IMG/VR virus record: IMGVR_UViG_2718218452_000013
Length of the DNA stretch: 46,500 bases
Direction: 5' to 3' (one strand)
DNA from: a virus
Lineage: Duplodnaviria > Heunggongvirae > Uroviricota > Caudoviricetes
The notes beneath the pieces were generated by a model, which was given only the letters and a program-made list of their open reading frames with translations, ran no database searches and had not been told where the DNA came from. Position numbers and translations under genes: made by a program. This document shows, one piece after another, positions 14,609 through 17,329 of this stretch (positions are counted from its first letter, which is position 1; each line of letters starts with the position of its first letter).

Positions 14609-14800
14609 CCCCAGTGTGTCCGTAAACTCATAACGGTATTTCACGTTAATCCCGTTCAGATCATCACTGCCGGGAACGTTCGTCCGGGCATGAAGATACC
14701 CCGCGCTCAGCGTGGACTGATGTTCAGACGCCCATGCAGGCGCACCGGATACGGCCAGACAAATGGCTGCGGACAAAATGGCGGCATAAAGTTTACGCAT
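11576..14800 (-). CDS. chimeric ORF: Lom N-terminus (64 aa) fused in frame to J' (J residues about 124 to end, variant receptor-binding C-terminus)
   Basis: 1074-aa [13 protein letters not shown]...TDTLG then [25 protein letters not shown]... ending ...[42 protein letters not shown]; junction at 14608/14609. Confidence 0.55.
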
Positions 14801-17329
14801 AATTACCTCTCGCTTTTCTGCAATAAAAAAGGCGTCATTTCTGACGCCCGTTCTGGGTTATAAAATTCAGCTGATACTGATACCTGCTGTGGATTTTTTC
14901 ATCACCACAACCAGCAGATCGCTGATACTGGTTGTTGGTGTCCAGTTATTCGCTCCTGATGAAGATACGGTGAATGTCAGTGTCAGCGTCCCCTGTCCGG
15001 CAGGCATATCTATAACTGAGGAAAATACGCCCTGAGCATCCGTCGTGGACTGATTAAAAATCTCCTGACCATTGCGGGTCACTCTTAACCGGCAGGTTGA
15101 ATACCAGTATGACTGTTGGTTATTACTGTTGAAATTCTCATGCTTACCACCGCGGAATAACACTGGCGGTATCATGACCTGCCGGTCAAATTTCTGATCA
15201 TCACTGATTCTTACCGTGATGGTGCCACTGGCATAAGTGCTCGTGCGGGGGAAAGACTTGCTGACCGTTTTGACAATATCACCTTCAATCTGGTTGGCTG
15301 ACAGTTTCCCCTTAATCTGACAGTTCTCATTAATCGTGACGTTGTTGAGCGTCCCTGAGTTCGCATTCACACTGCCACTGATATCCGCATTTTTAGCGGT
15401 CAGCTTTCCGTCTGATGTCAGGGAAAATACCGGAGGGCTGCCACCGCTGGTAATGGTGGGGGCTGTCAGGCGCTTCAGGAACACGTCGTTCATGAATATC
15501 TGGTTGCCCTGCGCCACAAACATCGGCGTTTCATTCCCGTTTGCCGGGTCAATAAACGCGATACGGTTAGCGGCAACCAGAAACTGGCTCAGCTTGCCTT
15601 CCTCCGTGTCCTCCATGCTGAGACCAATACCCGCGACATAATGTTTGCCGTCTTTGGTCTGCTCAATTTTGACGCCCCACATGGCATTCCATTTATCGTT
15701 AGCGTCCTTCCACTCTTTCGAAAACTCATCCAGTCTGCTGGCGTTATCCTCCGTCAGATCAACTTTTTCCAGCAGCTCTTTACCGAGATGGGATTCGGTT
15801 ATCTTGCCTTTGAAAAAATCCAGGTAACCTTCCGCATCATCGCTCGCCCGACCGACGGCCTCCACGAATGCCGATTTGCCAACGGTGTTCACACTGCGGA
15901 TATAAAAGTAATAATCATGGCCCGGTTTGATATTGATACTGGCGGCTATCCAGTACAGCCCCGTGCCAAGGTAGCGGGCTGTGGTTTCAACCTGCCTGAT
16001 ATCGGTAATCCGCTTTTCCGAGAACCAGAACTCAAACTGTACCGTCGGATCATAAACGGCAAGATGCGGCGTTGCGGTTATCTGAAAATAGCCCGGCGTC
16101 AGCTCAATCCGCGACGGTGCTGCCGGTGCGGCAATCCGGAACGATACCGACGCCGGATCGCCCTGCTGCCCCCAGGCATTTGCCGCCCGGACTGTCAGCC
16201 TGTAGTTCCCCGGCGCCAGTTGCGTGAAGCGGTATGTGGTTTCCGTCGTCCGGGCCGTGCTGACCAGCCGCTCACTGCCGTCATCCGCTGCCACGGTCAG
16301 GCGAAGCATAAAGCTCACGCCCTTCACCACCTTCGGCGTGTCCCAGCGCGCCAGCACCTGATATTCCCCGCTGTCTGCGGTGACTTCGGCAGTCAGGTGC
16401 TGCACCGCGGGCGGCGTGACGCCATTCACCGTGCCGCTCTGGTCGCCGTCAAAGTGCGCCCCGTTATCCACGATGGCTTCTTTTTCGGGTACATGCTGCA
16501 CGGCGGTGATGGCATACGTGCCGTCGTCGTTCTCACGGATACTCACGCAGCGGAACAGGCGCTGGCGCAACGTCGGCAACTTCAGCCCCCATACGCTGTA
16601 TTCAGCAACGCCGTCAGGAACACGGCTCACTTTCACCTTCACGCCGTCGGTGACGGACTGGACCTCCACGCTGACCGGATTACCCTGCCCGTCAACCAGG
16701 CTTATCAGCGTGGTGCCGGAGGATGGCAGCGTGATTTCACGGTCGAGCGTCAGCGTCCGGGTCTGGCTGTTCACCGCCAGCACGCGACCACCGATGCTGA
16801 TACCGGCATAGTCATCATCGCAGATTTCAATAACATCGCCCGGCACATGGCGAAGCCCTTCTGCGCCCACGCTGAAATCCACGGTCTGCGTTTCCAGCAG
16901 TTCCGTTTTAATCAGCCACAGCCCGGCTCGGTGTGCCTGCCCCCGACTGGTACAACCAAAGGCATCCATCTTCGTGACATTACGACCGTAACGGGCAATG
17001 GCCTGCGTATCTTCAACAAGCTCTGTCGCCGTCTCCCAGCCGTTATTCGGGTCAATCCAGTTCACCTCAACGGCATTATGGCGGTCCTTCAGGGCGCTGA
17101 AGCTGTAGCGGAACGGCGCACCATCATCCGGCATCACCACATTACTGCGGTTATAGGTCCACACCTTATCTGATGGTCGGTCCTGCACGAACGTCAGCGT
17201 CTGCCCGTTCCATACCGGCATACAGCGCATCGCCGAGCAGAAATCACTGAGCACATCCCACGCCTTACGCTGTGTGGTCAGGTACGCATTACAGGTAATG
17301 CGCGGCTCCGTGCCGCCAAAGCCGTCCGG
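14609..17329. repeat. tandem repeat unit 2 (partial, 2,721 bp), truncated where the H N-terminal portion begins
   Basis: Sequence-identical to 11318..14038 as judged by identical ORF translations on both strands. Confidence 0.85.

Follow-up and report, generated by a model that had tools for sequence, protein, structure and literature searches.

A tandemly repeated J-lom segment within the tape-measure gene of a lambdoid Escherichia coli prophage

Genes and junctions of the rearranged block

The window analysed here is the whole 46,500-nt stretch of IMG/VR record IMGVR_UViG_2718218452_000013 (Caudoviricetes), a lambdoid prophage at the DLP12 (intD) site of O103:H2-like Escherichia coli. Our subject is its tape-measure gene H, which is interrupted by tandem copies of a segment of the tail-tip gene J and the adjoining gene lom. 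A preliminary description of this DNA had drawn attention to a 258-bp module at the 5' end of lom, which occurs three times and in two cases leads into other coding sequence. All genes of the rearranged block lie on the minus strand, in the lambda order ...T, H, M, L, K, I, J, lom, tail fibre. The breaks were set to the base by comparison with the same prophage in the O103:H2 strains FWSEC0007 (L001) and 12009 (L123). In what follows, J' and lom' denote the relocated copies of J and lom, J1, J2 and J3 the three novel junctions, and H-N and H-C the two parts into which H is divided (Table 1).

By self-BLAST and a repeat search, the block was found to hold a perfect direct repeat (11316-14040 and 14607-17331; 2,725 bp, 100% identity) with a period of 3,291 bp. 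This repeat went unmentioned in the preliminary description, and the 258-bp module is its trailing end. The repeated unit of 3,291 bp consists of J from nt 368 to the stop codon, the 66-nt J-lom spacer and lom nt 1-193. The insert in H measures 6,013 bp, or 1.83 units arranged head to tail, and takes the place of 58 bp of H (nt 1279-1336), which are absent between H-N and H-C. When these 58 bp are added to H-N and H-C the sum is 2559 nt, exactly 853 codons, the length of lambda H. H-N is 100% identical to H of the relative (window 17330-18239 = L001 19452-20361), and copy B of J' is 99.9% identical to the native J of the same strain (L001 12133-14856). Downstream of H-C, in gene order, come M, L, K, I, the resident J and the resident lom. 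In a self-comparison of the window both repeat stretches also resemble this resident pair, with 94.7% identity over the body of J (4695-7356) and 89.8% over the end of J and the start of lom (4060-4468).

The lom 5' module, made up of the J-lom spacer with its terminator and ribosome-binding site (RBS) and of the first 193 nt of lom, is present three times on the minus strand (4060-4318, 11317-11575 and 14608-14866), as borne out by alignment and by the translations. This triple occurrence is far beyond chance. The two extra modules are identical to each other and show about a dozen differences from the resident one, including a 13-residue protein variant; a terminator hairpin was detected upstream of the lom' start in both. 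Both stop after ...ACACTGGGGC, that is at lom' nt 193 (codon 64 plus 1 nt), from where copy A continues in frame into H (...TDTLG-H-YEATLKK...) and copy B into J'. The junction sequences and Pfam matches thus agree with the earlier statement that the two extra copies are truncated at an identical point and fused in frame to J' and H-C. The true end of lom' lies at 11317 and 14608, one base past the positions given before (11318 and 14609); the shift comes from an allelic difference, GGG-CTG in lom' and GGG-ATG in the resident lom. The view of a discrete 258-bp module joined to foreign coding sequence stands for H and falls for J', which is the module's normal neighbour; the unit that is repeated is the 3,291-bp block.

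Table 1. Features of the rearranged block, of the resident J-lom locus and of the fusion open reading frames (ORFs); positions are those of the window.
Feature	Position	Strand	Content	Evidence
Whole rearranged block	11316..17331		1.83 tandem copies of the 3,291-bp unit	self-BLAST, repeat search, size arithmetic
H-N	17330..18607	-	H nt 1-1278, codons 1-426; 5' part of ORF 14867..18607	Pfam TMP_2, residues 54-256
Junction J1	17330/17329		H nt 1278 joined to J' nt 937, in frame	
J' copy B	14867..17329	-	J' nt 937 (codon 313) to stop, in frame with H-N	
J-lom spacer B	14801..14866	-	66 nt; intrinsic terminator hairpin 14849-14830, T-run, RBS GAGAGG	terminator scan, alignment
lom' copy B	14608..14800	-	lom nt 1-193 (64 codons + 1 nt: signal peptide and first mature part); starts ORF 11576..14800	
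Junction J2	14608/14607		lom' nt 193 joined to J' nt 368	
J' copy A	11576..14607	-	J' nt 368 (2nd base of codon 123) to stop; cut inside FNIII-A	
J-lom spacer A	11510..11575	-	terminator hairpin 11558-11539, T-run, RBS	
lom' copy A	11317..11509	-	lom nt 1-193; starts ORF 10091..11509	
Junction J3	11317/11316		lom' nt 193 joined to H nt 1337	
H-C	10091..11316	-	H nt 1337-2559 + stop (residues 447-853)	Pfam Tape_meas_lam_C; 100% identity to tape-measure proteins over 86% of the ORF
Resident J	4319..7714	-	full length, 1131 aa, full domain set	Pfam
Resident J-lom spacer and lom	3652..4318	-	lom 3652..4251, 199 aa; native module 4060-4318	Pfam Ail_Lom 1-199
ORF 14867..18607	14867..18607	-	1246 aa; H(1-426)::J'(313-end)	Pfam TMP_2 and J domains
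ORF 11576..14800	11576..14800	-	1074 aa; Lom'(1-64)-Q-J'(124-end)	Pfam Ail_Lom 1-70 and J domains
ORF 10091..11509	10091..11509	-	472 aa; Lom'(1-64)-H-H(447-853)	Pfam Ail_Lom 1-65 and Tape_meas_lam_C

Fusion reading frames and the source of the copies

The N-terminus of lom carries the features of a signal peptide in all three copies: an n-region MRK, a hydrophobic core at residues 4-17 and the sequence AWA/SE (the slash marking the end of the signal peptide). The two lom' fusions are therefore predicted to begin with the Lom signal peptide, as had been proposed. Beyond this N-terminus little of the parent genes is left intact. The resident lom is a full member of the Ail-Lom family (PF06316), to which the lysogen-expressed "moron" Lom of lambda belongs; the extra copies share with it the terminator, the RBS, the signal peptide and the first 64 codons, but match the family profile at positions 1-65 or 1-70 of 199 only. 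They are gene fragments and not functional members of the family, as 64 Lom residues cannot form the 8-strand barrel. The cuts in J likewise ignore domain borders: J2 lies within FNIII-A (the match to FNIII-A_GpJ begins only at profile position 34), and about 18 residues separate J1 from the Phage-tail_3 domain that follows it. Both J' copies retain the C-terminal receptor-binding domain by Pfam, and neither has the complete set of a J protein (FNIII-A, Phage-tail_3, Ig_J, Ig_J_second, Phage_Tail_Tip and Ig_GpJ_C, together with the N-terminal ~85 residues). H itself is no longer one continuous ORF of ~853 aa, its TMP_2 and Tape_meas_lam_C domains being found in two ORFs separated by 6,013 bp. 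Because each lom' module carries the lom RBS and start codon, the fragments downstream happen to read as Lom-signal-peptide fusions; most likely these are non-functional by-products, and annotators should not take such chimeric ORFs for new secreted proteins.

None of this was found elsewhere. Neither the 5,426 complete E. coli genomes nor the 50,697 phage records (INPHARED) contained a place covering both sides of J1, J2 or J3, and the exact junction word gave no match in the GTDB representatives, IMG/VR or the JGI metagenomes. The three fusion proteins and the split tail-fibre ORF described below are not on record by exact sequence. When the 472-aa fusion was compared with 5.8 billion protein clusters only tape-measure proteins were recovered, covering at most 86% of the query and none with an Ail_Lom domain, so that no lom::H fusion was seen; in the collections searched neither lom-N::J nor lom-N::H fusions occur in other genomes. 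The preliminary description had also raised the possibility that the shared end of the two lom' copies marks a recombination hotspot. A degenerate pattern for lom broken at nt 193 (GAGTTTACGGACMCACTGGGGMV) was found in none of IMG/VR, the JGI metagenomes and the GTDB representatives, as against at least 120 IMG/VR contigs for the intact-lom control. Judged from these searches, the rearrangement appears private to this sequence and lom nt 193 would not be a general hotspot.

Tape-measure proteins of chimeric structure do occur in other E. coli assemblies. One (P0001) has an in-frame internal tandem duplication of ~77 residues, another (P0012) joins Tape_meas_lam_C to a portal domain, and a third (P0077) joins Tape_meas_lam_C to Lambda_tail_I. 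The existence of such chimeric or internally duplicated proteins is a point in favour of rearrangement as the source of the structure we describe.

Compared with the contiguous, uninterrupted J-lom region of the same prophage in O103:H2-type E. coli, the J'-lom' unit shows 2-4 differences in 3.3 kb (99.9% identity); H of these relatives has no insert. About 121 complete E. coli genomes carry the J'-lom' allele at 99% identity or more; among the matches listed it always coincides with an intact gpJ that has an Ail/Lom gene next to it downstream. J' is thus the natural upstream neighbour of the module, and H its only new partner. It is the resident J that differs. Its 3' two-thirds (to about 7054) are of another allele than J', with a strongly divergent C-terminal receptor-binding domain, and the tract formed by the 3' part of J and the 5' part of lom (4048-7054) is foreign relative to the same prophage in the relatives. 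The exact resident J protein is also found in the NleB/OspG/Cif/NleG effector prophage of GCA_030346315.1 (L002). The resident locus has therefore been swapped by ordinary mosaic recombination, and the copies within H appear to preserve the ancestral J-lom allele.

Origin of the block

We regard the block as the probable outcome of a recent, single-lineage, non-adaptive and complex duplication-plus-deletion in a lambdoid prophage, likely brought about by template switching. According to this model, 3,291 bp of the prophage's own ancestral tail region would have been copied 1.83 times head to tail into H, replacing 58 bp of H, most likely by replication-based switching of the type known as fork stalling and template switching or microhomology-mediated break-induced replication (FoSTeS/MMBIR). 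Synthesis proceeding from J into lom would have run off twice at one fixed point, for example at a persistent nick or template lesion, and would have re-initiated upstream, at a distance of 3.3 kb (in J) the first time and of 7.3 kb (in H) the second. An extra forward switch, or a later deletion, may then have joined H to J'. The lom' 5' modules would be mere passengers in this process.

The signature of FoSTeS/MMBIR is a triplication accompanied by duplication and deletion, with microhomology of 2-15 bp, as described also for the amplification of lac in E. coli (PMC2621351). The block resembles it in its direct, head-to-tail copies of a nearby segment, in the combination of duplicated, triplicated and deleted segments in one event, in the lack of mobile-element features, and in its location beside pre-existing repeats, namely the multiple J and lom alleles of the genome. 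The joints have 0-7 bp of (imperfect) microhomology: the parents of J1 share TG (17330-17331) and an offset GACGG, and those of J2 share CACTGG.G, 7 of 9 bases, with P about 0.001. The 100% identity of the two copies points to a recent event; a perfect direct repeat of 2.7 kb is expected to be unstable in the presence of RecA. We prefer a single event with several switches to two independent tandem duplications, or to a rolling circle with subsequent insertion, since each of these alternatives needs an unexplained coincidence of break points.

Several observations weigh against template switching as described. J3 is a blunt join with no shared bases, and the same lom' end was used twice as a donor; both are untypical of the mechanism, and the double use forces the model to invoke a fixed lesion ad hoc. 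A further difference from the FoSTeS/MMBIR cases is that no selection for amplification is evident. Local sequence offers no help here: the DNA at the lom break forms no special hairpin (fold z = -0.69) and the nearest Chi site is more than 17 kb away from the block, so that neither hairpin nor Chi explains why lom nt 193 was reused. The foreign tract of the resident locus is almost co-extensive with the ancestral tract relocated into H, a coincidence which the model leaves unexplained. All three joints keep the reading frame, for which the chance is 1/27 if they are neutral, and this is mildly suggestive of selection or design. Finally, the structure of the block is that of an assembled sequence.

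This last point leads to the strongest competitor, an artefact of assembly or library preparation, which we consider possible but distinctly the less likely explanation. The tandem J'-lom' block would then not exist in the cell, and would have been produced by chimeric molecules or reads, or by mis-resolved repeats among the many near-identical lambdoid prophages of such strains. In the complete E. coli genomes J and lom are found at a median of 3-4 places per genome, a classic assembly hazard. The uniqueness of the structure among all collections searched, the lack of any record of the fusion proteins and of the split fibre ORF, and the blunt joint J3 all speak for an artefact, and the loss of a single nucleotide from a homopolymer in the tail-fibre gene resembles a long-read error. 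However, misassembly driven by repeats joins sequences at shared homology, whereas the joints seen here have only 0-2 bp of exact homology. Random chimeras, for their part, would account neither for the repeated use of one end nor for the imperfect microhomology at J1 and J2, nor for the loss of exactly 58 bp of H with all else collinear. A contiguous window of 46.5 kb that contains a 2.7-kb perfect repeat would also imply long reads spanning the block.

A site-specific process, with programmed cleavage or recombination at lom nt 193, or with the 3.3-kb unit entering new targets as a mobile or circular cassette, is very unlikely. It would account for an identical lom' end joined to two different partners, and for a unit that behaves as if circularly permuted, lom' nt 193 being joined to J' nt 368. 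Yet no broken lom was found in IMG/VR, where at least 120 contigs carry the intact form, nor in the JGI metagenomes or the GTDB representatives, and lom nt 193 bears neither a Chi site nor a special hairpin. The insert has no terminal inverted repeats, and at its target 58 bp were deleted instead of duplicated; no recombinase or transposase was detected, the insert holds only J and lom fragments, and its joints occur nowhere else in the collections. A circle entering H would, moreover, give J'::H-C as its right joint, and not a joint at the circle's own junction.

Two further explanations of the breaks were considered and dropped. Processing of ends by Chi and RecBCD was suggested by the resemblance to Chi of GCTGGTGA in lom' and ACTGGTGG in J at the breaks, but no true Chi lies within 17 kb; the cut position is known to be 4-6 nt 3' of Chi, and the cuts at the lom and J breaks do not fit this. 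A blunt cut at the lom' end by a restriction enzyme or a Cas9-type nuclease found no fitting site or protospacer-adjacent motif when checked by eye.

The preliminary description had speculated that an envelope-targeted copy of a receptor-binding domain could act in superinfection exclusion. In such a scheme the fusions would be expressed from the lysogenic signals of lom and exported by the Lom signal peptide, and the receptor-binding domain of J' would mask or titrate the receptor. Lom is transcribed in lambda lysogens (PMC1151598; PMC7067206), and this, together with the signal-peptide features, makes expression and export of the fusions conceivable. At least 2.4 kb of native upstream sequence also precedes each lom' start, the C-terminal receptor-binding domain is complete in the 1074-aa ORF and of an allele unlike that of the resident J, and all joints are in frame. 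We nevertheless regard this scheme as very unlikely. An intrinsic terminator immediately precedes each lom' start, and the minus strand yielded no sigma-70-like promoter. The protein itself is cut inside the FNIII-A domain and bears a Lom fragment too short for a barrel. J binds receptor loops exposed at the cell surface, and a J fragment exported by the Sec pathway would be on the wrong side of the outer membrane for such a receptor, because it would be periplasmic. A scan of the fusions with PADLOC gave no match to a defence family, and neither the protein clusters nor the DNA collections contained a relative. The scheme also leaves H-C and the H-N::J' fusion unexplained, and two identical copies leave no time for selection. 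The speculation thus found no support.

An analogy for this scheme is offered by T5 Llp and phi80/N15 Cor, small lipoproteins of the envelope which are conserved across phages and cause superinfection exclusion by inactivating a phage receptor, FhuA. They are phage- or prophage-encoded and bear a signal peptide, as the fusions would. Unlike them, the fusions are ORFs of 472 and 1074 aa, the latter a tail-tip fragment, with no homologous fusions, no conservation and no defence-family match. No lipobox ([LVI][ASTVI][GAS]C) was found in them: the signal peptide ends in AWA/SE, and the only Cys occurs in ...AAIC-LAVSG, with Ile at -1. One may also speculate that the lom' modules are portable heads for expression and export, that the 1,074-aa Lom(1-64)::J'(124-end) protein, produced in the lysogen from the signals of lom and exported by Sec, sequesters or blocks the cognate receptor during its biogenesis through a J' receptor-binding domain of another allele than the resident J, and so excludes phages that depend on this receptor, and that the in-frame state of the three joints would then reflect selection; we think this barely credible.

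Equally barely credible is the purely inferential proposal that a linear template with fixed ends at J nt 368 and lom nt 193, for example a processed and reverse-transcribed late transcript or a piece of linear DNA, was copied end-to-end twice by template jumping and captured where H was broken. Both unit ends do behave as run-off or landing points without homology (J2, J3), and the reuse of one end would be accounted for better than by classical template switching. On the other side, the window shows neither a reverse transcriptase nor a retroelement, J2 does have its 7/9 microhomology, and the unit holds an intrinsic terminator, which most transcripts would need Q antitermination to pass.

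If the structure is real, it could serve as a natural case of an MMBIR-like rearrangement in a wild E. coli prophage, and a worked example of a prophage tail operon scrambled by multi-step duplication and deletion, with signal-peptide-bearing chimeric ORFs arising by accident. That one break point was used twice in the absence of homology is of minor mechanistic interest, and could reflect a persistent template lesion that led to repeated run-off of replication. If it is not real, it is a caution on assemblies of poly-lysogenic Shiga toxin-producing E. coli (STEC) strains. The event is one more of a known kind, with little significance beyond this strain.

Decay of the tail genes and minor observations

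With H split, the prophage should be unable to assemble tails. H is also damaged in the sister O103:H2 strains 12009 (L123) and FWSEC0007 (L001), by a different lesion: 80 bp are deleted between GGCCCCC / CTGCCCCCCC repeats (L001 20354-20361), and the sister H is annotated as frameshifted. These 80 bp are kept here (window 18240-18311). As the deletion is separate from the insertion we describe, H has been inactivated independently, and this prophage family is decaying at H. Such decay is reminiscent of the "defective prophage pool" of enterohaemorrhagic E. coli and STEC, as described for O157 Sakai (PMC2669165), in the STEC-type lineage, in the inactivated tail genes, in the exchange of J and lom alleles with other resident prophages and in the independent H deletion of the sister strains. 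The usual lesions there are insertion-sequence insertions, frameshifts, deletions and homologous exchanges, unlike the 1.83-copy J-lom tandem within H, which is in no other genome searched.

The side tail-fibre gene, a single coding sequence of 971 aa in the relatives, is present here as two minus-strand ORFs (2184-3593 and 673-2223). The split results from the loss of one T in a TTT run near 2964, which reflects either true pseudogene formation or a sequencing error in the homopolymer.

Another minor feature is a patch (10008-10280) with ~33 differences from the relatives, located where H ends (3') and M begins. As the patch is dense in differences and its surroundings are nearly identical to those of the relatives, it represents a small mosaic exchange.

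Antisense to J' there is an ATG-started ORF of 510 aa, duplicated with the repeat (12350-13882 and 15641-17173, both on the plus strand). It has no Pfam match and is probably not a gene but a consequence of codon bias.

Chi sites (GCTGGTGG) are unevenly distributed in the window. All 8 are located at 35028-44618, in the early and regulatory half, with none in the 35 kb of structural genes; ~2 are expected by chance for the whole window.

Within the tail-fibre gene, 1832-2227 is composed of three tandem 132-bp repeats that are 62-77% identical.

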